Origin: Myxococcales bacterium
Lineage (GTDB): Bacteria; Myxococcota_A; UBA9042; JABWCM01
Direction of reading: 5' to 3'
Length of the DNA stretch: 64,000 nt
Assembly (NCBI GenBank): GCA_013360285.1
Contig: JABWCM010000005.1
Span: 2,149-66,148 of the forward strand
Shown here: in pieces, positions 4,846 to 36,200 of the stretch
How the letters are laid out: every line of letters begins with the position of its first letter
How positions within the stretch are numbered: position 1 is the first letter of the stretch
Translations under genes and position numbers: made by a program
Notes under the pieces: generated by a model
The model's input: the letters and a program-made list of their open reading frames with translations, nothing else
Told to the model about the DNA's origin: nothing
Databases searched by the model: none

Positions 4846-4922
<77 letters not shown>

Positions 4923-4928
4923 AATAAA

Positions 4929-4963
4929 CGGCTCTGAGACACAACTCAGGGCCGTTTTTTTTT
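4929..4963 (+). terminator. Rho-independent terminator after the tRNA
   Basis: GGCTCTGAG-ACACAACT-CTCAGGGCC hairpin followed by T9. Confidence 0.7.
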
Positions 4964-4994
4964 GTTGTGAGAAAGTCTACGGACGCGGGGTGGC

Positions 4995-5140
4995 TGGTGT
5001 TTGTAGATGAATTCCAGGCCCGGGCGGCCTTTGGCTGTCTCGCCCGTAAAAATCCCTGCGCCATATTCCCGATATGATTCAGGATTTTTTCTGACGAGAT
5101 CGATCCTCGAATTCCAACGCTGGTCAGAAGTGTGTGTTAA
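4995..5140. repeat. Partial copy of a ~160-bp MITE-like element (second copy at 19116-19278)
   Basis: A ~110-bp core is shared with the 19.1-kb copy: GGTGTTTGTAGATGAA...GGCGGCCTTTGGCTGTCTCGCCCGTAAAAATCCCTGCGCCATATTCCCGATAT.ATTCAGGATTTTTTCTGACGA. It includes the AAAAATCCCTG...CAGGATTTTT stem. It sits immediately 3' of the tRNA-fMet terminator. Confidence 0.6.
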
Positions 5141-5163
5141 GTTAACGATTTCGGTTGATCCGA

Positions 5164-15681: not shown

Positions 15682-17955
15682 TTACGGCACGTAGATTTCG
15701 GAATAGGGAACCAGGTCCGGCGTGTCGGAGTCATTGGACAGATTCATTCCGCCGCTGACCAACACCGCACCTTTAAGCGGGCCGCGGGTGATAAGCGTAG
15801 CCGAATGTCCAAATCGTGGTATCGTCATTTGAACCGTTTCGGCTTCGTACGAATTGGCTTGTGGGTCGTAGAGCAACGCCGTTGACGTGGCACGGTTGTC
15901 GTTGTTGAGGCCGCCGGTGATAAGAATTTTCCCGGTGTTCAGTAACGTTGCGGTGTGGTGGGTGCGAAATGTTGCTGGAGCGCCGCCACTTACCCCGCTT
16001 GTGCTCGCTTCGTCGCCCGCAAGTGTTGGGGTTTCGCCATCGGCATTTTGTAACGTCAACAAGTAGGTCGGTAAATTAGCGGGTCCATCGAACGCCTCCC
16101 CGGAAACGCCGCCAATCGATACCGCTGTGGTGGTCCCCGGAATGCTCACAACACGCGAAAACTTGGCGCGGCGCAACTCGCCCACACCGTTTGCTTCCAA
16201 AGCAACAAAACCACCGGATTTGCTTTCATCGCCGCTGCGAAATAGCTCTCCAACCGGTGCCGTTACGGATTGGGCTCCGCCGATGATGGCGAATGCGTCG
16301 CATGCACCGTCCGCGGCGCGCGCAAAACACGCCGTGGAAGCAGCCGAACGGGCCACGGTGAACACATTGGGATTCACAAGGCAATTTGCCTGTACCGGCG
16401 CCTGAAAAACGCAGTTTGCTACGAGATTTGCGCTGGTGTACTGATTGACTGTTGTCGGAGAAGTGTCCCATTGAGTCGCTGGAGTATCTTTCGGGGCGAA
16501 ACCGCCCGAGAACATAAATTCCGCGTTGTTGCCATTTCGTGCGATGTCAACGGCCTGAAGTGCAATGGGTTGGGGCTCTTTGGCCTTGACAGCGTCTTTG
16601 TTGACGGTGGCTTCGAGCGGATAAACTTTGGCTCTTGGGTTGGATCCGGTGGTATCCAGCAACAGGATGTTGGACAACAAATTGTCGCCGCCGTCAGGTC
16701 CCGTAGCACTTGGCACTAATTTAAGGCGCCGCACTCCGGCGCCATCGGCGGTCACTTTGATATCGGTTGCCCGAAGGCCACCGGACAACGCAAGCAGCAG
16801 GCCATCGCGCGATAACGCCATGGTGTGAAACGCGCGGTTTAGGTCTACCGGTGCAAAACTGGATGCTTCTGCGCCGGAATAGTCCACCGTTTGGAATGTA
16901 AACGTGTCGGGATCGAACAATTCAACCGGGGCGTCTCCTGCGACAAAGTTACCCACGCGTCTAGTCAACCCACCCGTGAACAGGATGTTGCCGTTTTGCA
17001 GGCCGGCCGCTGCATGAAACGCCCGTGGTACAAGGTTGTTTAGCGGAAAGTATGTCCGCAGTGTGCACCGGTTGCCGGTTCCGCAGGTACTATAAGGATA
17101 AATCGCCGAACAATCGTCATCTGCATCGCATTCGGTGGTCAACAACGATTCAAATGGATTATCAACCGTGCATGCCCCGGCATTGCAGCGAATCGGCGCT
17201 CCAGGCAGTGAAGTCAACGCTTTTTGTTCCTCGGTACACTGTTTTTTTAGGTCATTTTTGAATGCGTCGATACACTCGCAGTCTGTGGTACAGGTCGTTA
17301 AAGCGACATTTCGCGTAAAAGTCTCAAGTGCTGCATCCGGTGTTGGAAGTGCCGAAAAATGTCCGACACACAACGGGGAAAGATAGTAGGTACGCGGGTC
17401 ATTTTCCCGAACCTCGACACCGCCTCGAAGTCCGATGAAGGTGCGTTCAGTACAATTGTCATCGCTGAACGCTTCAAACAGCATCGTGATGTTGGCGCGA
17501 GGTTTGATGTCCCCCACCTGAATCACCGTTGCATTTTCCAGACGACCACCGGCGTCTTTACACGCTTGTGCACGGTCGTCTTGCGATGAGTTGCTGACCG
17601 CATCCATTCGAACGTTGGCACCGACACACTGGACGAACGACAAACATCCGTCGGGTGCTTTTCCTTTATCACTGGTGTCAAACAACGCATTTGCAGCCGC
17701 GGGATCGTCGGGAGTTCCATCGAACAACCGAAGTCGGACACTGCGCACATCCGGGTAAGATAACGTAGCCGGACAGGTTGCGGAAAATGCCCCATCTGCC
17801 TTTAACGCCACCGAAACCTGAACCAATCCGTGGGTATCGCCGTTTTCTACCTCAGAACTGGTAGTGCACGCCGCGGCGAGCATGACTGCGCCTATGGAAA
17901 CGTAAATAGCTATGGGCAACTCTGCTGAAGGAAGAGAATTCATCGGTTTGTTCAT
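15682..17955 (-). CDS. Secreted lipoprotein with Kelch-like beta-propeller repeats and a Cys-rich insert
   Basis: Lipobox ...VMLAAAC. Repeated blades LFTGGLT..., ILITGGLNND..., VLVSGGMN.... Translationally coupled to the upstream gene by a 4-bp overlap. Confidence 0.5.
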   Translation of the reverse strand: MNKPMNSLPSAELPIAIYVSIGAVMLAAACTTSSEVENGDTHGLVQVSVALKADGAFSATCPATLSYPDVRSVRLRLFDGTPDDPAAANALFDTSDKGKAPDGCLSFVQCVGANVRMDAVSNSSQDDRAQACKDAGGRLENATVIQVGDIKPRANITMLFEAFSDDNCTERTFIGLRGGVEVRENDPRTYYLSPLCVGHFSALPTPDAALETFTRNVALTTCTTDCECIDAFKNDLKKQCTEEQKALTSLPGAPIRCNAGACTVDNPFESLLTTECDADDDCSAIYPYSTCGTGNRCTLRTYFPLNNLVPRAFHAAAGLQNGNILFTGGLTRRVGNFVAGDAPVELFDPDTFTFQTVDYSGAEASSFAPVDLNRAFHTMALSRDGLLLALSGGLRATDIKVTADGAGVRRLKLVPSATGPDGGDNLLSNILLLDTTGSNPRAKVYPLEATVNKDAVKAKEPQPIALQAVDIARNGNNAEFMFSGGFAPKDTPATQWDTSPTTVNQYTSANLVANCVFQAPVQANCLVNPNVFTVARSAASTACFARAADGACDAFAIIGGAQSVTAPVGELFRSGDESKSGGFVALEANGVGELRRAKFSRVVSIPGTTTAVSIGGVSGEAFDGPANLPTYLLTLQNADGETPTLAGDEASTSGVSGGAPATFRTHHTATLLNTGKILITGGLNNDNRATSTALLYDPQANSYEAETVQMTIPRFGHSATLITRGPLKGAVLVSGGMNLSNDSDTPDLVPYSEIYVP

Positions 17956-18965
17956 TTCAACTGGCTGCGGAGAAGGAAATCTTGATCGGGGCGTTGCCCG
18001 ATTAGAAGGTTCACATTGCCGGTTGCCGCGGCTTCGGAATCAAAAGCGCCGGCCGCGGCGGCGATTCCAACCCCGGCTCCGGCTGCTGCCACCCCAACGG
18101 CGGTCCAAAACCACCACGTCTCATAAAATTCTGGACCGTCTTCTTCTTCATCACCTTTGGGGCCGGTATCTTGTTGACTCCCATCGGTGGGCGTGGGTCC
18201 GGGAGTGACCGCGACATCAGGCGATTTCGACAGGGAAACATTGAGTTCTACATTTTTGTCACGAATAACAAGCTCGCGAATCGCATCGTCGTGACCGTTT
18301 AAGACCAACCGCAGGCTGTATTTGCCTTGTACTTTTGTAAAGGTGGACGGTGTTTTGCCCATATTCTTGTTATCAAGGTACACGGTTGCTCCGCTCGGTT
18401 CCGACAGAATACGTACCGTGACCTCCTTGGGCTCTTCTTTTTTGGGCTCTTCTTTTGGGGGTTCGGGTTTAGGTGCTTCCCCCATCAACGCGACCGCCGC
18501 GATGGCCGTGGTTTTTGCGAGCGCATCGACCGAAGCGGCGCTCTGGTTGTCTTGGGCAACCTGTTCCCCTTTTTTGACATCGATAAGCCGAACCACCAAC
18601 TTAAGACTTCCTTTTTCACCGGTTACTTCGCCAAACAAAACCAGGTCTGCGTTGTTTGTTTTCCCAATGGTTTGAAGACAAGCGGTATCCGGTTCTACAC
18701 ATTCCGCGTCGAACATCAGATCGATGATTTCGGCGTCCGGAGTAGGCAGCGCTTTGTATTTTGGGCGAGCGGTGATTTCTTGAGTGAGGGCTTCGGTGAT
18801 CTTTTTTTGGTCGTTTTTGTCCAGTTTTGAACCAACCACGACCTTCAACGGCAGTACGGACCGTTGTTGCGTTTGCGCGTGGGCGACTGTTGCCCACCAA
18901 GGAATTCCCCCAATCATGGCTAAAACAGCGATGATTATTTTTGTCGATGTCGGCATCCGGTTCAT
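17952..18965 (-). CDS. PEGA domain-containing secreted protein with C-terminal TM anchor
   Basis: Signal peptide. PEGA motif VRILSEPSGATVYLDNKNMGKTP. PEPPKEEPKKEEPKE linker. C-terminal hydrophobic WWFWTAVGVAAAGAGVGIAAAAGA. Confidence 0.6.
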   Translation of the reverse strand: MNRMPTSTKIIIAVLAMIGGIPWWATVAHAQTQQRSVLPLKVVVGSKLDKNDQKKITEALTQEITARPKYKALPTPDAEIIDLMFDAECVEPDTACLQTIGKTNNADLVLFGEVTGEKGSLKLVVRLIDVKKGEQVAQDNQSAASVDALAKTTAIAAVALMGEAPKPEPPKEEPKKEEPKEVTVRILSEPSGATVYLDNKNMGKTPSTFTKVQGKYSLRLVLNGHDDAIRELVIRDKNVELNVSLSKSPDVAVTPGPTPTDGSQQDTGPKGDEEEDGPEFYETWWFWTAVGVAAAGAGVGIAAAAGAFDSEAAATGNVNLLIGQRPDQDFLLRSQLK

Positions 18966-19115
18966 TCTTTCGTCGCCTCTCGGTTTTCGGCTCGACGCCG
19001 AGCCACGGCATGGGATGCTACTCTATGGCAAGAAACAGTGTCAACGCACCGCATAAGATTGCAGGTGGTTTGGGTGCGTCGGGTGATGGGAGTTCTCGCA
19101 AATGGGCACCTACCT

Positions 19116-19278
19116 AGGTGTGTGGTGTTTTTAGATGAAATTTGTGTCCTGGCCGCCTTTGGCCGCCTCGCCCGCAAAAATCCCTGCGGCATATTCCGGA
19201 TATTCCTCAGGATTTTTTCCGACGATTCGGCTCAAATTCGGCTGGCCAAAAATTCCCCTAAAAAACACCACACACCCA
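19116..19278. mobile_element. MITE-like element with perfect 16-bp terminal inverted repeats
   Basis: GGTGTGTGGTGTTTTT at 19117-19132 and its exact reverse complement AAAAACACCACACACC at 19263-19278. The internal ~110 bp match the copy at 4995-5140. It lies between the PEGA gene start and the metalloprotease gene stop. Confidence 0.7.
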
Positions 19279-19280
19279 GC

Positions 19281-22190
19281 TCAGAATCCAGTGCCGCTGA
19301 CAAAATAACATTGCAATATCCCAACTTCGCCTAGGCCGTGGGCGATTCCGAGCCGAAAATGGGTTGCGTGGCCGGTCAACAACGTTGCCGCGGTGCGCAG
19401 TTCTGCTCCAAGACTCATGTGCCAGGGCGCGCTACGGAGCGATTCACCGGTTGCCGTTCCGACGTCAAAAAAGAGCGCAGCGTGTAGCCTTTCTATGAAA
19501 AACGGCAAACTAGTGAATCCATCGTGGATGTACCAGACAGGAAAACGATACTCGATATTAAATAAGTGGATCTGGTCACCGCGAAACGCGTCTGGAACAA
19601 ATCCTCGAAGCAAACCGGCACCGAGCCCACGTTCTTCCAAGATATCTTCGACGAGGTCCCTCTCCGGGATGCCGCCAAGGCGAAACCCTTCTTTTCTTGC
19701 CGGGTCGCCGCCGGAAATTCCCCCGTCGTATCGCAGGGCAAAGACATGGGCTCGAGCGTACGGCATGGCAAAATATTCGTTCCACTGCCATCTGGCGGTA
19801 TACGTTAAACTGTCGGAATCCAATAACGATGTTCTGACAACCAACGATGTGCCGAGTCGGCGACCGGTTTCCGGGCTGATTGAATAATAAAAACTCTCCC
19901 TGTTGTCGTATCTCCAACTAAACGAGAAACTGATATTCGTTGCCCCTGTGGGGACATAGGGGATTCCGGTCGCCGGATCAGGGCGCAAAGACGGGGTCTC
20001 TACCAGGAACCCTTTGGAGATATCGACGCGGAAATTGGTTGTAAATGAGCCGGAATTGTTGGGAAACGGCAACGACACGTCAACAGAGCCGAGTGCGACG
20101 TCTTCATCCACCACAACAGTGGTGAAGGCATCAAATGCAATTCTTGGTCGACGAAACCACGCCGCACTGAGTCCTACCGACGGAATATAGTGCTGATTTC
20201 TGTAAGATAAGGCTATCGACGGAAACGGATTTTCGACGTTCCAGTGAGCACCGATAGACCACGTATGCAATTGTACGGCATCGTTTCCGGTCAATTGGAG
20301 TTGTAGAGTCGCATTATCGGGCGATACAAACCTAAATTCCGGCAACCATGTTGCAGGGTAGAGCGTAAACATAGGATTGTATTCGGATTCAGGATAATGA
20401 ATTTGGTTTGGCGAATACCGCCCCCGGGGGGAGAAGTCTTCAAGTGCGACGGTTTTTTGCGCGGTGTCGGCATCCGGAGACGGCGAAAAATCAAGAGCAC
20501 TTTCTGCAAGGTCCCAGCCTTGTGTGCTGTACCGGCTAAATAGGACCGTGGTTCCGTCGGTGGTTGGGTCGACTGCGCCGGTCAGCGTTCGTGTAATTTG
20601 GTGTTTTTCTTTTGTTTTGATGTCCAGCGCAAACAATTCGGGACCGTCTTCTCCAGAAGCTGCGTAGACAACAATCCGCCCATCCGGCGAAAAACTGGGG
20701 GTCATGTCGGCCGCAGCATCCGCCGTCAAACGTGTTACCTGACCGGTGCCCAGTTCTTTTGTATACAAATCCCACACGTTGTTTTTGTGCATCGCAAACA
20801 CAATCCGGCGCCCATCGGGGCTGAATCGCGGATGGATGACCTGTTGCAGCCCAACCGGTGCGACGAGGTCGGTTTCCTGACCCGTGGACAAATCCCGCAG
20901 CACCAGGCGGGAACGTCCATATTGGGATGTGGCAAATACGATGGACCGGCCGTCCGGAGACGGCGTTGGATCGAGAACCCGTCGCCCCCAAGTCAGCCGG
21001 GTGGTTTGTTGTGTTGCCAGGTCATAACGGAAGAGGTCGTCGAAGTGATATACCGTGTCAAATCGTTCACTTCTGGTGAAATAAACCGACATCCCGTCGG
21101 CACTGAAAACGGGCCTGCCACATCCTCCGCGACAGGTGATTACGTCTTGTTCGACGCCGGTTTTTCGATCTCTTATACGCAACGTGCTGATCTGGTCGCC
21201 GGTCGAAGACCGATACACCAGCAGGCGACCGTCTGGGGACAACGACGGGTTCCGTTGAAACTCGCCTTCGGTGGTCAGCGGTGTACCATTTTTTAATCCG
21301 AGTTGTTCTTGGTTAGTCTTCCATCGACCGTACCGAATCTTCAGATCACGGTGCCAGGTCATTTGCATATCGTCCCACGTCGATCCAAACACCTCTTTTG
21401 CGATCGCGTTGTATCCTATGGGCACCAAACGGCGGCTGTATTTTTGCAAAAATAACCGCAATCGGTCTTCTCCGTAGTTTTCCGCCAGAAATGAGATGAA
21501 TGAACCGCCAAAAGCATACCAACCGGTTCTGCGGGGTTGTTCGTGGGGGCTGCCTCCCAACTGGGCAAAACTGGGCAACGTGTCGCCCAAAGCTGCGGTG
21601 CGTAAATACATTTCGAAAAAAGACCGGTGGTTTCGCCCACCGCCGGTTTTTTGGGTCTCAACCCAGGTCGCGAGGCCCTCGATGAACCAGTTGGGAAGAT
21701 TCTGATGGGGGCGCACCGAGAGCCCGATACTGGTCAATAGGCCAGGAATCCCGTCCACCATGTTTAAATGCAGGATGTGGGTGTATTCGTGATACAGCAG
21801 CATTCGTAGATAGTCGTCGGCATCTCCTAGATCACTGTCGGGACCCGGATGAAACGCCAACAACGTGATCAAATTATATCGGTCAACGGATGCATATCCG
21901 TTGGCGTTGTCGCCCGGGTCCACCAATACAATGTTGGTATGAATCGAATCGGCCGTGCCGAAAAACGGCGCAAGGGCATCGTGGGCTTCCTCGGCTATAT
22001 TGGCCGCTTTTCTTCCAATTTCTTCGGCTGAGGCGGGATAGTGTACCGAAAAGTGTTTTGTACTGATCGTACGCCACGAGATCTTTGGATCTGCCGCCAA
22101 CACCTGGGTGATAAACGCTGACTGCCCCAACAAAATCAGCGGGAAATACATCAAGGCAAAAAGGAATTTCGTTTTGGCGGTAACGGTCAC
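19281..22190 (-). CDS. Secreted zinc metalloprotease (HEXXH) fused to TolB-like beta-propeller and C-terminal beta-barrel
   Basis: HEYTHILH zinc motif. Multiple SPDG/FSPDGR WD40-like repeats (SLSPDGRLLVYRS, FSADGMSVYF, FSPDGRRIVFA, FSPDGRIVVYA). The C-terminus has alternating aromatic and beta-strand character and ends ...YFVSGTGF. GTG start with a signal-like N-terminus. Confidence 0.6.
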   Translation of the reverse strand: MTVTAKTKFLFALMYFPLILLGQSAFITQVLAADPKISWRTISTKHFSVHYPASAEEIGRKAANIAEEAHDALAPFFGTADSIHTNIVLVDPGDNANGYASVDRYNLITLLAFHPGPDSDLGDADDYLRMLLYHEYTHILHLNMVDGIPGLLTSIGLSVRPHQNLPNWFIEGLATWVETQKTGGGRNHRSFFEMYLRTAALGDTLPSFAQLGGSPHEQPRRTGWYAFGGSFISFLAENYGEDRLRLFLQKYSRRLVPIGYNAIAKEVFGSTWDDMQMTWHRDLKIRYGRWKTNQEQLGLKNGTPLTTEGEFQRNPSLSPDGRLLVYRSSTGDQISTLRIRDRKTGVEQDVITCRGGCGRPVFSADGMSVYFTRSERFDTVYHFDDLFRYDLATQQTTRLTWGRRVLDPTPSPDGRSIVFATSQYGRSRLVLRDLSTGQETDLVAPVGLQQVIHPRFSPDGRRIVFAMHKNNVWDLYTKELGTGQVTRLTADAAADMTPSFSPDGRIVVYAASGEDGPELFALDIKTKEKHQITRTLTGAVDPTTDGTTVLFSRYSTQGWDLAESALDFSPSPDADTAQKTVALEDFSPRGRYSPNQIHYPESEYNPMFTLYPATWLPEFRFVSPDNATLQLQLTGNDAVQLHTWSIGAHWNVENPFPSIALSYRNQHYIPSVGLSAAWFRRPRIAFDAFTTVVVDEDVALGSVDVSLPFPNNSGSFTTNFRVDISKGFLVETPSLRPDPATGIPYVPTGATNISFSFSWRYDNRESFYYSISPETGRRLGTSLVVRTSLLDSDSLTYTARWQWNEYFAMPYARAHVFALRYDGGISGGDPARKEGFRLGGIPERDLVEDILEERGLGAGLLRGFVPDAFRGDQIHLFNIEYRFPVWYIHDGFTSLPFFIERLHAALFFDVGTATGESLRSAPWHMSLGAELRTAATLLTGHATHFRLGIAHGLGEVGILQCYFVSGTGF

Positions 22191-22512
22191 AGTTACAAAA
22201 CATACCGAACCGTGTCTCCATTCGATAGTCCGAAGTTGTTCAAATCCGTTTTTTGAATCATGGCACCGGCTTTACACAAGAGTTTGTCAACGCGTTTAAG
22301 CCCATCAGAAAAACCGGCGGGAGTCCGGCGCGGAGATTTTTCCGCGCGAAGCGGCCAAGATGTGGGATTCATCTAACAGCGCCATACACCGTTTCCGTTT
22401 TGTAACCATTTCCCGCTGATTTGCTCTTGCGCGTCTCAAAAAACGTATGGTAACGCTAACCATACGCAAGCTTTAGTACGCTGCGTTTCAGCAACACAAA
22501 CGGAGGTAGAGG

Positions 22513-23310
22513 ATGAGTTTGGATAAAATGATGACCAATCGGCGGCAGTGGTCCGACCATTTGGTTGCTGCCGGGAAGTCCCATGCGCCGGCGTTGGCGG
22601 AGAAACTGGCGGCCGAGTCGTTGGCTTGCGGGATCAACCCTCCCGACGGTCTTGACGCGGTGATTCTTTGGCTGGCCGGCCTGCTCCAGTACCGAACGGG
22701 CGCGATGGTTGCCGCCGAAACTGCCTTGAATCAAGAGGCAGTCGACGATGTGCCCTATCGTGAAGCCCGCGATGGTGCGGCAGTGGAGTTGTACACACTT
22801 CTTTCCGGGGTTCGGACGGCGGCGTCGCTCCAATCGAATGCGCTTGCCGAGAAATGGATGGTCAAAATGCCGGTCCCCGAAACGGCGTCGCTTCTTTATA
22901 CCTACGGCAAAAACGTGTCTGGTGCGTTGTCATCCGACGCCCAAACCTACAAACTGATAGGCGGCCTCACGTTCATTCCTCAAGAAGCCGCCCAGGCCCT
23001 GAAATCCCCTCTCGACACGTTGGGCCAAGCCTTGGACGACCTTGCCCGCGAAGGACACGAATGGAACGCGGCACTCAACCTCCGCGACCTCACCATCGCC
23101 GACTGGGCACGCAGCTATTCCGGGCTCGGACACATTTTCGAAGGGCTCTTTTTATTGGTAAACGAACCCCTGCTGGCCGACCGTGCCCGACCTACGATCC
23201 GCAAACGGCGAGGCGAAGAAATAGCGCCACCGTTACCCACCACTCAAGCCGACGCCGCTACCGTCACCCCGACCGAACCCACAACCGTCACCCCGTCCGA
23301 ACCTGCGTAA
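22513..23310 (+). CDS. Hypothetical protein
   Basis: GGAGG 6 nt upstream of the ATG, good coding statistics and a Pro/Thr-rich C-terminal tail. No family recognised. Confidence 0.45.
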   Translation: MSLDKMMTNRRQWSDHLVAAGKSHAPALAEKLAAESLACGINPPDGLDAVILWLAGLLQYRTGAMVAAETALNQEAVDDVPYREARDGAAVELYTLLSGVRTAASLQSNALAEKWMVKMPVPETASLLYTYGKNVSGALSSDAQTYKLIGGLTFIPQEAAQALKSPLDTLGQALDDLAREGHEWNAALNLRDLTIADWARSYSGLGHIFEGLFLLVNEPLLADRARPTIRKRRGEEIAPPLPTTQADAATVTPTEPTTVTPSEPA

Positions 23311-23395: not shown

Positions 23396-23700
23396 TCGTT
23401 TTTCCGAAATGGGAAAGGCGTTGTCGACTATCAAAAGTCGTCTTTCCCAAATGGGAAAGGTGTTTTTTAAACCCGGATCGTGTTGTGTCACCCGGGAAAG
23501 CCTTTTCCAAAAGCCGGAATCGTCTTTTGCCACAAAAAAAGCCGTTGCCGAAAGTCCGGATCGCCTTTCCCAAATGGGAAAGATGTTCGTGAATGCCGGA
23601 GATTGTCTTTCCCACTTGGGAAAGGCGTTTCCGAACGCCAAAAGTCATCTTTCCCAAACAGGAAAGGTGTTCGCGAATGTCAAAGTCGTCTTTCACAGCC
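23396..23700. repeat. Tandem array of ~8 degenerate ~42-bp units, each centred on the palindrome CTTTCCCAAATGGGAAAG
   Basis: Units begin at about 23396, 23441, 23489, 23523, 23565, 23607, 23649 and 23691. The consensus is CTTTCCCAAATGGGAAAGGYGTTYNNGAATGYCNNAGNNTCGT. The array is non-coding and lies between convergent genes. The small FPKWER-repeat ORFs here are translation artefacts of the DNA repeat. Confidence 0.7.
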
Positions 23701-33259: not shown

Positions 33260-36200
33260 CTAGTCTTTGATGCAGATAATACCAGCGAAGTAACGAACCG
33301 AGGTTGACTCGTTACCGCCTGAGGGCCCGTAGCCGGTACCGACGTTGTTGACGCTCAAGTCGGCGCCGTCAGCACTGGTCGTGTGAAGGTAAGTCGCCGT
33401 TGTTGGCGTTGTACCCTTTACACGCAGATACTCGCGGTATTTGGTGTAGTTTTCCCACTCGCTGTCGCCGCAGCAGGGTCCACCGCCGGGTGGGCAGTGA
33501 TTGCTTGCAGTACCCGATACCATTCCGTTTGGCGAACCCGAGAAGTTGTTGTCGGAATAATAACATTCGTTGATGTTCCGGTTGTTACGCCAGGACGCCT
33601 CATCGATACCACCGCATTTTCCGTCCGCACCTTCTTCGGTACCTTGGGCGTTACACGTCGTGCTGGGGTGATAGGTGTTACACGAAGTGCAGCCCTGAGC
33701 GAAGTTCTGCTGATCCGAAGGCAACATTTTGTCCAACCGCCATTCGCTCATCGTCGGCGTACCGGCATTGGAAGTCGAACCACAACCGGTGTTGCCGTAA
33801 GAGCTGCAACCCCAGGTCCAGGCGACGTTCCAGTTGTAGCCGGACCATCCGCATTGATTGTGATACGCTTTCTGGCCGGAAACAACGATGTTCCCGTTTG
33901 CCACCTTACGTGCGGCATACTCGGCTGCGGTTGCCCAGTGCCAACCGGTCGGGCATTGGTAATCATAAGTCGGGTTCCAAATCGTCGATTTGGCAATGGC
34001 ATACGCGATGTTGGGATCGGCCAAACTGACACGCCAACCGCCACAGTTATCCGATGTGTCCATCCAGGCCAATGGTCCGGCGGAAACATTTTTCTTACAC
34101 ATAATACCGGCAAACGAAGTGATGGTTTCGTCGGCGCCGGAATCAAGGAATGCGTCGTAGTTACCCGCATGTTTGTATCGACCGGTGACATTGGAGTCGG
34201 AGAACCGGAAATAAGTTCGTGACCGACCACGCCATACATAAGCCGACCATCCACACATGTCGTGATAGGCGTATGGACCTTGGTTGTAGTTGCCAAGTCC
34301 GGTTTTGAAACTCGCGTCCCCTTCCGCGGTGGTCATCCAGTGGTAACCATCTGGGCAAGTGTACACTTTGTTGGGGTTCCACAAGGTGCTTTTGGACACC
34401 ATGTAATACACATCCGGGTCAAAGAACGACTGACGGAAACCGCCGCAGTTGTCGCTGCGATCCCACCAATCCAGGGGGCCTTCAACGTAGTTGTCCTGGA
34501 TACAAACAATACCGGCAAAGCTCGTGAGAGTTCCATCCGTAGCGTGGGCCGACGTTTCATGGGACTCCGAGTGCAGGTAGCGGTTGTTGGTTGCCGAATC
34601 GGAGAACCGGAAGTACGTACGGGTTTGACCATGCCATACCTGGGCACTCCAACCGCATTGGTTCGAGTAGCGGTAAAACGAGCCGGTAGACGGTTGATTG
34701 TCCATGATCGCTTTGTATTCCGCCGAAGAAGCCCAGTGATAACCGGTCGGGCACTGGTAGGGATAGGTTTTATTCCAAACGTTTTGGCGCGCCACGGCGT
34801 ACCGGATTTGGGGTGCCCAAGAAGATTGGCGGAACCCTTTGCAGTCATCGTCGGTCAGCATCCAATCGGTCGTGCCCGGCTTCGGATACGGATCGTCGGT
34901 GATTTTCTTACAGATAATACCCGCAAAGTTAGCCGTTGTTGAGTTGGTCGTACCACGATATTGTTCGTAGTCGCCGGCGTGCATGTACCAGTTGTCAACG
35001 GCCGAGTTGGCAGTGCGGAAGAAATAACGGTTGAGACCCGACGCACCCCACACATAACCGTTCCAGCCGCAAGTACTGTAGTAGTTGTAATGGGTTGCGC
35101 TGTTGCTCGTGGTGAATGCCGCCTGAACGTCGGCGGTGGTTGCCCATACATAACCGGCGGGACAAGCATAGGGATAGGTTTTGTCCCATGTTCCCGACTT
35201 GGCAACGGCGAAGTAAAAACGCGGATCCCATTGGCTCTGGCGGAAACCACCGCAGTAATCGGTTTTATCCATCCAGTCGGTCGGGTCGGCTGCCGGATCC
35301 ACGTCGGCTTTGCAAACGATACCGGCGAAGTATTCGCTGCTTGCACCGTTGGCGATGTCGAACTGCACGGTGTAGGGATCGGCGTTACCCGCGTGTTTGT
35401 GGGCCAAAGTGGTCCCGTCTTTGAACGAATCGGCAAACCGGAAATGGTGGCGGGTCAAACCGTCGTTGAGTGCGCTGTAGCTGTTCCAGCCACACATATT
35501 CTGGTAAACACGGACACCTTCGTTGTTGGTCGTCTTAAACACCGAATAAGCTTCGGCGGTGGTTGCCCAATGATAACCGGTGGGGCATTGATAGTTGATG
35601 TTGGGGTCGTACCAGTTTTTGCGGGCAACGGCATAGTAGAATCGGCTATCAAACGTGCTTTGACGCCAACCATTACAACTGTCCTCGGTCAGCATCCAAT
35701 CCAGTGGCCCCGGAGTAGCCGTCGAGATACAGATAATCCCAGCGAAATCCTGAAGGGACATGGTGGTGCTGGTGGAGGTACCATCATACGACGTGGAGTC
35801 TTTATAAAAGCCGCTGTTCAGTTTGGAGTCGGAAGTACGGAACCAACGGCGATTTTTTCCACCCCACACCGTGCCGCTCCAACCGCATTGATTCTGGTAA
35901 ACCAACGCACCGGCTGCTTGTGGCCCGTTAAAAATCGCTTTCGCTTGATTTGTGGTCATCGGCACAAAGCCATTCGGGCAAGTATAGTTATAGTTCGGAT
36001 CCCACTGATTGGACTTCGCAACGGCATACCAAACGCGGGTATCCCACGTGCTTTGACGGAACCCACCACATTCATCGGTGGTGTCCATCCATGACGGCAT
36101 CAGATCCTGCCCACAGAGTTTGGGATTCGGTGTCGCAATGCCGCCGGAATATTCGCAGCGGTTACCCGGAGCGTAATAAACCCATTCACCGCCTGAAAGC

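Follow-up and report, generated by a model that had tools for sequence, protein, structure and literature searches.

The MITEs of prokaryotes are described as elements of less than 500 bp with terminal inverted repeats (TIRs) of 4–30 bp and direct repeats (DRs) that wane with age, whose transcripts fold stably and many of whose copies are truncated and lack TIRs or DRs (PMC10969869). Two such families, Chunjie of Geobacter uraniireducens and QMITE2 of Coxiella burnetii, are 100–250 bp long with TIRs, noncoding and intergenic, with a transcript predicted to form a long stable hairpin, and occur as full-length copies mixed with truncated ones that are missing a TIR or DR (PMC10969869). The 160-nt palindromic repeat described here, from an uncultured myxobacterium, shares their size, TIRs, noncoding and intergenic nature, predicted hairpin and mixture of full-length and truncated copies, and fits the published description of a prokaryotic MITE (PMC10969869). 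It has no sequence similarity to Chunjie or QMITE2 and an exact DR was not seen; at least seven copies are documented, from the window analysed, a contig that runs past it and translated proteins of the genome, as against copy numbers of 38–95 in those two families (PMC10969869).

Other described repeats resemble it in part. Correia repeat-enclosed elements of Neisseria are likewise palindromic, ~100–160 bp long, bounded by TIRs and often located near gene ends, with TA at the junctions, and their hairpin, when present in transcripts, can be a site of processing or stability; they are unrelated to our repeat in sequence and host, and their 26-bp TIRs, clear TA duplication, IHF site and outward promoters were not shown here. 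ERIC/IRU elements (127 bp) share with it an imperfect palindrome, a similar length and a place in transcribed intergenic DNA, often at gene 3′ ends, and are classed as a MITE despite an unknown transposase. They differ in sequence and taxon, and ERIC is conserved across bacterial families whereas the present family is found in one MAG only. RUP of Streptococcus pneumoniae and other IS630-derived MITEs are again ~100–160 bp long with TIRs, but the TA duplication is imperfect here (TA/CA). Finally, the abundant REP/BIME sequences, which are associated with RAYT, are palindromic and extragenic, as our repeat is, and leave no target duplication, yet they are units of 20–40 nt with a conserved GTAG head in clustered arrays. 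Our unit is 160 nt long, lacks such a head and is found as isolated copies at separate places, and does not belong among them.

The stretch of DNA analysed (‘the window’) comprises 64 kb of a 69,166-nt contig of a Myxococcales bacterium MAG, and its own proteins are NUN12211–NUN12243 (locus tags HUU55_). Copy A of the repeat lies at 19117–19276 on the plus strand (nhmmer E 7.6e-49), is full length at 160 nt, and belongs to a small non-coding repeat family dispersed in the intergenic DNA of this one genome. At least seven copies are known, and these (A–G) each occupy an intergenic locus of their own and are spread over at least four contigs. Its strand was set by the better alignment to copies B and G; identity to B is 77% in the plus orientation and 67.5% when reverse-complemented. 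The perfect 16-bp TIRs claimed for it by an earlier, sequence-only reading are indeed exact: the left TIR, GGTGTGTGGTGTTTTT (19117–19132, plus strand), is the reverse complement of the right TIR (19261–19276, minus strand; AAAAACACCACACACC when read on the plus strand). The arms are not 147 bp apart, as that reading had it, but have 128 nt between them and lie 144 nt from start to start. The whole of copy A is an imperfect palindrome in which complementarity runs imperfectly from end to end, and a repeat search returned it as the longest inverted repeat of the window (70-nt arms, 70% complementarity).

On the minus strand the copy A region folds at −89.6 kcal/mol (z −8.2) and on the plus strand at −69.9 kcal/mol (z −6.9), and on neither strand was any of 200 shuffles as good. 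The best-conserved core of the element is a central stem-loop (19176–19217, plus strand; fold z −2.6) with arms AAAAATCCCTG (19176–19186) and CAGGATTTTT (19208–19217). A stem with a 21-nt loop had been proposed here, and the loop stands, but the stem is not the unbulged one described: it carries a one-base bulge, the exact complement of its arm being CAGGGATTTTT. An internal 10-nt tandem duplication, TGGCCGCCTT / TGGCCGCCTC (19150–19169, plus strand), is found in copies A, B and G; copy C has the unit only once, and the alignment shows a 10-nt gap there. G+C content is 53.7% overall, and neither copy A nor the element sites are notably AT-rich, in contrast to many MITEs, a point against that classification.

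Copy A occupies part of the 315-nt spacer between two minus-strand genes, directly behind the upstream one (19281–22190; NUN12225.1), whose 969-aa product is PD40/Tricorn-like, has a C-terminus like that of Omp85 and contains an HEYTH motif. The downstream gene (17952–18965; NUN12224.1) encodes a 337-aa PEGA-domain protein. The stop codon of the 969-aa gene (19281–19283), which had been placed 3 bp away, is 4 nt from the element. A sigma-70-like promoter of the PEGA gene, TTGACA-18-TAGCAT (19015–19044, minus strand), lies 72 nt downstream of copy A and is kept in a sister species. No U-tract follows the hairpin of copy A, which is thus not a canonical intrinsic terminator. Elsewhere in the window, successive genes on the minus strand at 33260–60021 encode very large secreted proteins (1,023–2,404 aa) made up of cysteine-rich repeats, one with Dicty_CTDC/Lcl_C matches and another with a CHRD match, and these supply most of the direct-repeat families of the window.

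Three further copies are known from their DNA, two of them in the window. Copy B (4989–5145, plus strand; nhmmer E 5e-46) stands beside a tRNA-Met(CAT) gene (4846–4922, plus strand) and starts 31 nt past the intrinsic terminator of that gene (4926–4957). The earlier observation that its interior matches that of copy A is borne out (87% identity over the 71-nt core, 77% over 141 nt at 4989–5129), though the copy is not complete: its left end, GGTGGCTGGTGTTTGT, matches at 13 of 16 positions, and its right end is decayed, with the right inverted repeat missing. By eye, the neighbouring tRNA has an anticodon stem with the three G:C pairs typical of initiators and a U/G wobble pair at positions 1/72. 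Bacterial initiator tRNAs, such as E. coli tRNAfMet, usually have a C-A mismatch at these positions.

Copy C (22241–22390, minus strand; ~52–61% identity to A) is an old relic in which the left end and core survive. It sits upstream of the 969-aa gene, between this gene and the divergent gene at 22513, and is matched by a profile that was built without it (nhmmer E 4e-7, 22390–22276); like B, it has lost the right end. Behind the neighbouring gene (22513–23310), non-coding DNA at 23398–23700 holds ~6 copies of an 18-bp palindrome, CTTTCCCAAATGGGAAAG, mostly 41–42 bp apart, an array that looks like a set of candidate binding sites for a dimeric DNA-binding protein. Beyond A, B and C, nhmmer found no copies in the 64-kb window. 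Copy G lies ~2.6 kb past the window end, on a Logan contig that reaches 2.7 kb beyond the window (L057:16063–16179; nhmmer E 2e-36; 79% identity to A), and lies 27 nt after the stop codon of ychF. The left ends of B, C and G can all be aligned to that of A, and the ends of the family share a consensus of ~16–17 nt, GGTG-NN-TGGTGTTTTT.

Two other stretches near the start of the window deserve mention. At 905–941, CCTTTCGGCATATACCTGATATTGCCTCAG resembles the loop region of the element's core at a level that is not significant (nhmmer E 0.05), and may be a tiny relic of the element. It adjoins a second, unrelated palindromic element of ~153 nt (1116–1268) with TIRs AGAGGGTGTTTG(G/T)GAAAAAAATA and a GC-rich hairpin interior (fold −63 to −66 kcal/mol, z −3.4 / −4.9). 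With GAGGGTG counted as the first bases of the repeat, this element has exact TAA...TAA flanks; GGTGTTT is common to its ends and to those of the copy A element, and it is probably another MITE family.

The remaining three copies, D, E and F, are known from accidental translations of the repeat in annotated proteins and not from their DNA. Protein databases were queried with a concatenate of the element's reading frames and, by exhaustive phmmer, with a 98-aa ORF that spans the element, and both queries (against 5.8 and 1.84 billion representative sequences) matched one MAG only, the one from which the window derives; two further protein matches, P0132 and P0133, were discarded as unrelated repetitive translations. 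Copy D (NUN13815.1, HUU55_09270; E 5e-13; on a 26,394-nt contig) aligns to A without indels from terminus to terminus, from CVVFF at the right end to KKH at the left, and back-translation allows its two ends to match each other at up to 14 of 16 positions. Copy F (NUN15040.1, HUU55_15530; E 6e-17; on a 31,016-nt contig) retains the right terminus as a GGTGGCTGG variant; it ends in ...KKTPAT followed by a stop, which corresponds to AAAAAAACACCAGCCACC + T(A/G)(A/G), the same variant as in the left end of B. Copy E (NUN15906.1, HUU55_19955; E 3e-5; on a 10,307-nt contig) starts at the edge of the GenBank contig, inside the element core. On the evidence of these translations, both ends are retained in at least one of D, E and F and probably in two.

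These translations also define what the three annotated proteins are. NUN15040.1, a 51-aa ‘hypothetical protein’, is wholly element-derived; NUN15906.1 is a partial protein that starts inside copy E, an annotation artefact; and in NUN13815.1 the first ~100 aa, read through copy D, are a spurious extension, the true start of the protein being probably the lipoprotein-like VNRWTLLALLFVLIAC.

The element is neither absent elsewhere nor unconserved at its ends, the two findings against which the sequence-only reading had staked its claim: there are seven copies, and D has both termini. These copies bear equally on whether copy A might be a hairpin that arose by chance, a terminator that occurs only once or an error of assembly, a suspicion that the MAG origin of the window, and nothing more, would raise. 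Chance alone would produce a perfect inverted repeat of 16 nt inside 200 nt only ~0.003 times per 64 kb (an estimate, 64000 × 200 / 4^16), and four to five runs, each assembled independently from short reads, gave the same sequence ends. Together, the family copies and the independent assemblies refute this reading, to which we assign a negligible probability.

The same assemblies show how the repeat behaves when short reads are joined. Short-read contigs that run into a young copy (A, B or G) all terminate within it: at copy A, contigs of four runs break 24–27 nt inside the left end and those of two runs 26–27 nt inside the right end; at copy B, one contig begins in the core; and at copy G, one contig terminates 117 nt into the element. 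The relic C, by contrast with these young copies, is assembled through unbroken. The contigs with breaks at A, B or G (Logan L001–L005, L007, L056 and L057) are all from the same species as the window. Breaks of this kind are the behaviour of a multi-copy repeat in de Bruijn assemblies, and they therefore point to further near-identical copies in the genome or population. An inversion or deletion variant was considered for the breaks at copy A, and we use the breaks only as repeat-type assembly failure. The break points at copy A lie 24–27 nt in, against 30 nt expected for k=31, and their positions differ between samples; strain variants, shared flank bases or a drop of coverage in the hairpin may account for this offset.

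A comparison with a sister species, represented by contig L006 (SRR27317614), shows that the locus can exist without the element. There, an orthologue of the 969-aa gene (77% amino acid identity) is again followed by the PEGA gene, and only 61 nt separate its stop codon and the conserved block, as compared with 210 nt in the window. The coding end and the promoter-to-start region align well, and the orthologous spacer has no similarity to the element; nor is any copy C-like sequence detectable upstream of the L006 orthologue. Copy A is thus polymorphic, present in the window and absent in L006, although the diverged spacer hides the exact empty site and the absence in L006 could also be a deletion there, which counts against taking it as a sign of mobility. 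Directly after the orthologous stop codon, L006:3346–3356 reads GGCACCACACC, in which the 9-mer CACCACACC resembles the element terminus CACCACACACC. Such a 9-mer is estimated to occur by chance in 60 nt with a probability of roughly 5e-4, and it may be coincidental or a footprint left by a copy since lost.

We consider it probable, with a good measure of confidence, that copy A is a full-length non-autonomous DNA transposon, a MITE of the DDE type, whose family is, on present public data, confined to one uncultured Myxococcales lineage. The original call of a MITE-like element thereby gains support from the copies, at least seven in number and dispersed in one genome, from the conserved ends, and from the absence of the element in the sister species. 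At 160 nt the element is below the ~500 bp that bounds MITEs; its TIRs are conserved among copies (16/16 in A, both ends in D, the right end in F); and it has no transposase or conserved coding capacity, database ‘homologues’ being confined to element-derived stretches in three proteins of this one MAG. Against the reading, the 64-kb window and the fetched loci showed neither an autonomous element nor a transposase that shares these ends.

The flanks speak less plainly. The earlier reading had proposed a look at the flanks for target-site duplications of 2–9 bp, and no exact one is present at A, nor at D by back-translation. Copy A, the only copy with both flanks sequenced, is flanked by CTA on the left (19114–19116, plus strand, directly outside the left end) and by CAG at the mirror position outside the right end (19277–19279; CTG read inward), which gives TA versus CA, or CTAG versus CCAG (3/4). 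CTA makes up 0.49% of trinucleotides in the window DNA, and yet it adjoins two of the five sequenced ends, those on the left of A and G (P ~2e-4), while CTN adjoins three of the five (P ~7e-4); the right ends of D and F, which are protein-derived, are compatible with CTA/TAG. These CTA/CTG flanks could mean that the inverted repeat reaches 3 nt further out, or they could be what is left of a CTAG/TA target, and the presence of so rare a trinucleotide at the ends hints at a target of the CTAG/TA type. Elements of the IS630 family, and some of the IS5 family, typically use a target of this type. If insertion were of the IS630 type, with TA inside a CTAG-like site as its target, the CTA/TAG flanks seen here would be accounted for; set beside the TA duplication, typically within CTAG, of IS630/Tc1-mariner elements, C-TA adjoins the left ends of A and G and CA-G follows the right end of A, all this with a single copy that has both flanks. 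On the target reading, a TA or CTAG duplication at copy A would since have been altered by one substitution.

It is with these flanks that a spread of the palindrome by some route other than DDE cut-and-paste has to be weighed – as a REP/BIME-like sequence moved by RAYT (Y1), as a palindrome-associated element derived from IS200/IS605, or by recombination or gene conversion. Such routes leave no target-site duplication and so fit the flanks of copy A, which lacks an exact one; the folding of the entire element into one long hairpin and the absence of a DDE partner from the window are also what they would lead one to expect. On the other hand, the length of the element far exceeds that of REPs, there is neither a conserved 5′ GTAG nor a clustered alternating array, and the CTA/CTN flanks fit a TA/CTAG target. 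The best-conserved features of the family, moreover, are true TIRs with a sharp boundary, which is the signature of a DDE transposon, and it is usual for MITEs to lose their direct repeats gradually as copies age (PMC10969869). We therefore hold these other routes to be unlikely, and the DDE-type MITE remains the preferred reading.

The repeat might alternatively be supposed to encode a small protein, either from the conserved ATG in TAGATGAA (57 aa in A) or as a 51-aa ORF of the NUN15040.1 type. An ATG does lie within GATGAA in A, B and C and can be inferred there in D, E and F, and one copy has been annotated in GenBank as a 51-aa protein. Yet peptides of the ATG frame are 33–50% identical between copies, as expected of unselected sequence at 60–77% nucleotide identity; an indel of 10 nt is present in C, GATGAA is replaced by GATTCG in G, and the frame that is open differs from copy to copy. 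The ATG-frame peptides of A, B and C had no candidates in a database of 5.8 billion protein sequences (90%-identity clusters). The ORFs on both strands that had earlier been called spurious are present, and none of the element's ORFs has a Pfam match. With frames unconserved, an indel in C and no Pfam match, we reject the small-protein reading as very improbable.

More is to be said for the family being primarily a functional RNA or cis-regulatory module (a 3′-UTR stabiliser, a terminator or an sRNA gene) that is kept by selection and is not selfish DNA. The very stable fold of copy A begins 4–5 nt past a stop codon, the minus strand, which is the transcribed one, folds better by 12–20 kcal/mol, and copies B and G likewise lie just downstream of genes. 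The folding advantage of the minus strand must be discounted as a sign of RNA selection, for G-U pairs show no strand bias (4 vs 3). Furthermore, B and C fold no better than shuffles (z −0.8 / −0.5 for B), the two central-stem substitutions in G are uncompensated, copies occur in both orientations and upstream (C, D, E) as well as downstream (A, B, G) of genes, copy A has no U-tract after it, and the sister species manages without the element at the orthologous locus. In Rfam 15, the only match in the window at gathering score is the tRNA, and a relaxed scan of 19050–19350 returned only noise (E>6). The base changes between copies are not compensatory, and the family is under neither coding nor RNA-structure constraint. 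A primary role in RNA is, on this evidence, quite improbable.

A variant of this idea would join mobility with function, in that the family could be a lineage-specific mobile hairpin module which enters CTAG-like sites behind stop codons and terminators and serves the host as a portable 3′-end RNA stabiliser or read-through barrier; alternatively, the family could depend on a type of transposase not yet linked to MITEs, and such a transposase would explain the absence of an exact duplication. Copies A, G and B do lie at short distances behind gene ends, namely 4 nt from a stop codon, 27 nt from that of ychF and 31 nt from the tRNA terminator. We regard either version as a rather unlikely elaboration.

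Returning to the DDE-type MITE, the history of copy A may be pictured as follows. A transposase encoded elsewhere in the genome would bind the ~16–17-nt termini (GGTG-NN-TGGTGTTTTT), would excise the element and would reinsert it between genes, where the target is probably CTAG/TA-like. Point mutation and the loss of one end would then erode the copies, a course along which the present copies could be placed as intact (A, D and F), at least partly intact (G), without the right end (B) and relic (C). Copy A would have inserted between the PD40/Omp85-like gene, 4 nt behind its stop codon, and the promoter that the PEGA gene has for itself. Were copy A transcribed, it would give the mRNA of the PD40 gene a 3′ end in the form of a hairpin of ~−80 kcal/mol, which could, as a side effect, make the transcript more stable or hinder read-through.

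The distribution of the family appears narrow. A left-end pattern that matches A, B and C, GGTGNNTGGNGNTNNTAGATGAAN{20,50}AAAAATC, had no matches in 185,579 species genomes and none in JGI metagenomes, and plasmid and phage collections gave only a 34-nt chance match. A core pattern, AAAAATCYCYGCGN{5,35}TTTTTCYGAYG, had 18 metagenome and 30 genome matches, which are scattered over taxa, score at most 17.5 bits against the family profile and were dismissed as chance. Both pattern scans are strict, such that copy G fails both and diverged families are missed, and the collections evidently do not include the source genome. As far as public data go, the family thus seems to be restricted to one uncultured Myxococcales lineage. 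We found no specific report in the literature on MITEs in Myxococcales, and our verdict is that the family was not previously described and is an ordinary MITE-like repeat, a known kind of bacterial genome feature.

What the family adds is therefore a lineage-restricted member of the MITE-like repeats, one that challenges no current view. The usual question that it raises concerns expression – does a hairpin 4 nt past a stop codon alter the two envelope-protein genes between which it lies? For this organism, the repeat explains the breaks of short-read assemblies at these sites, accounts for three faulty GenBank annotations in the MAG, and provides a marker for tracking strains of this uncultured Myxococcales lineage.
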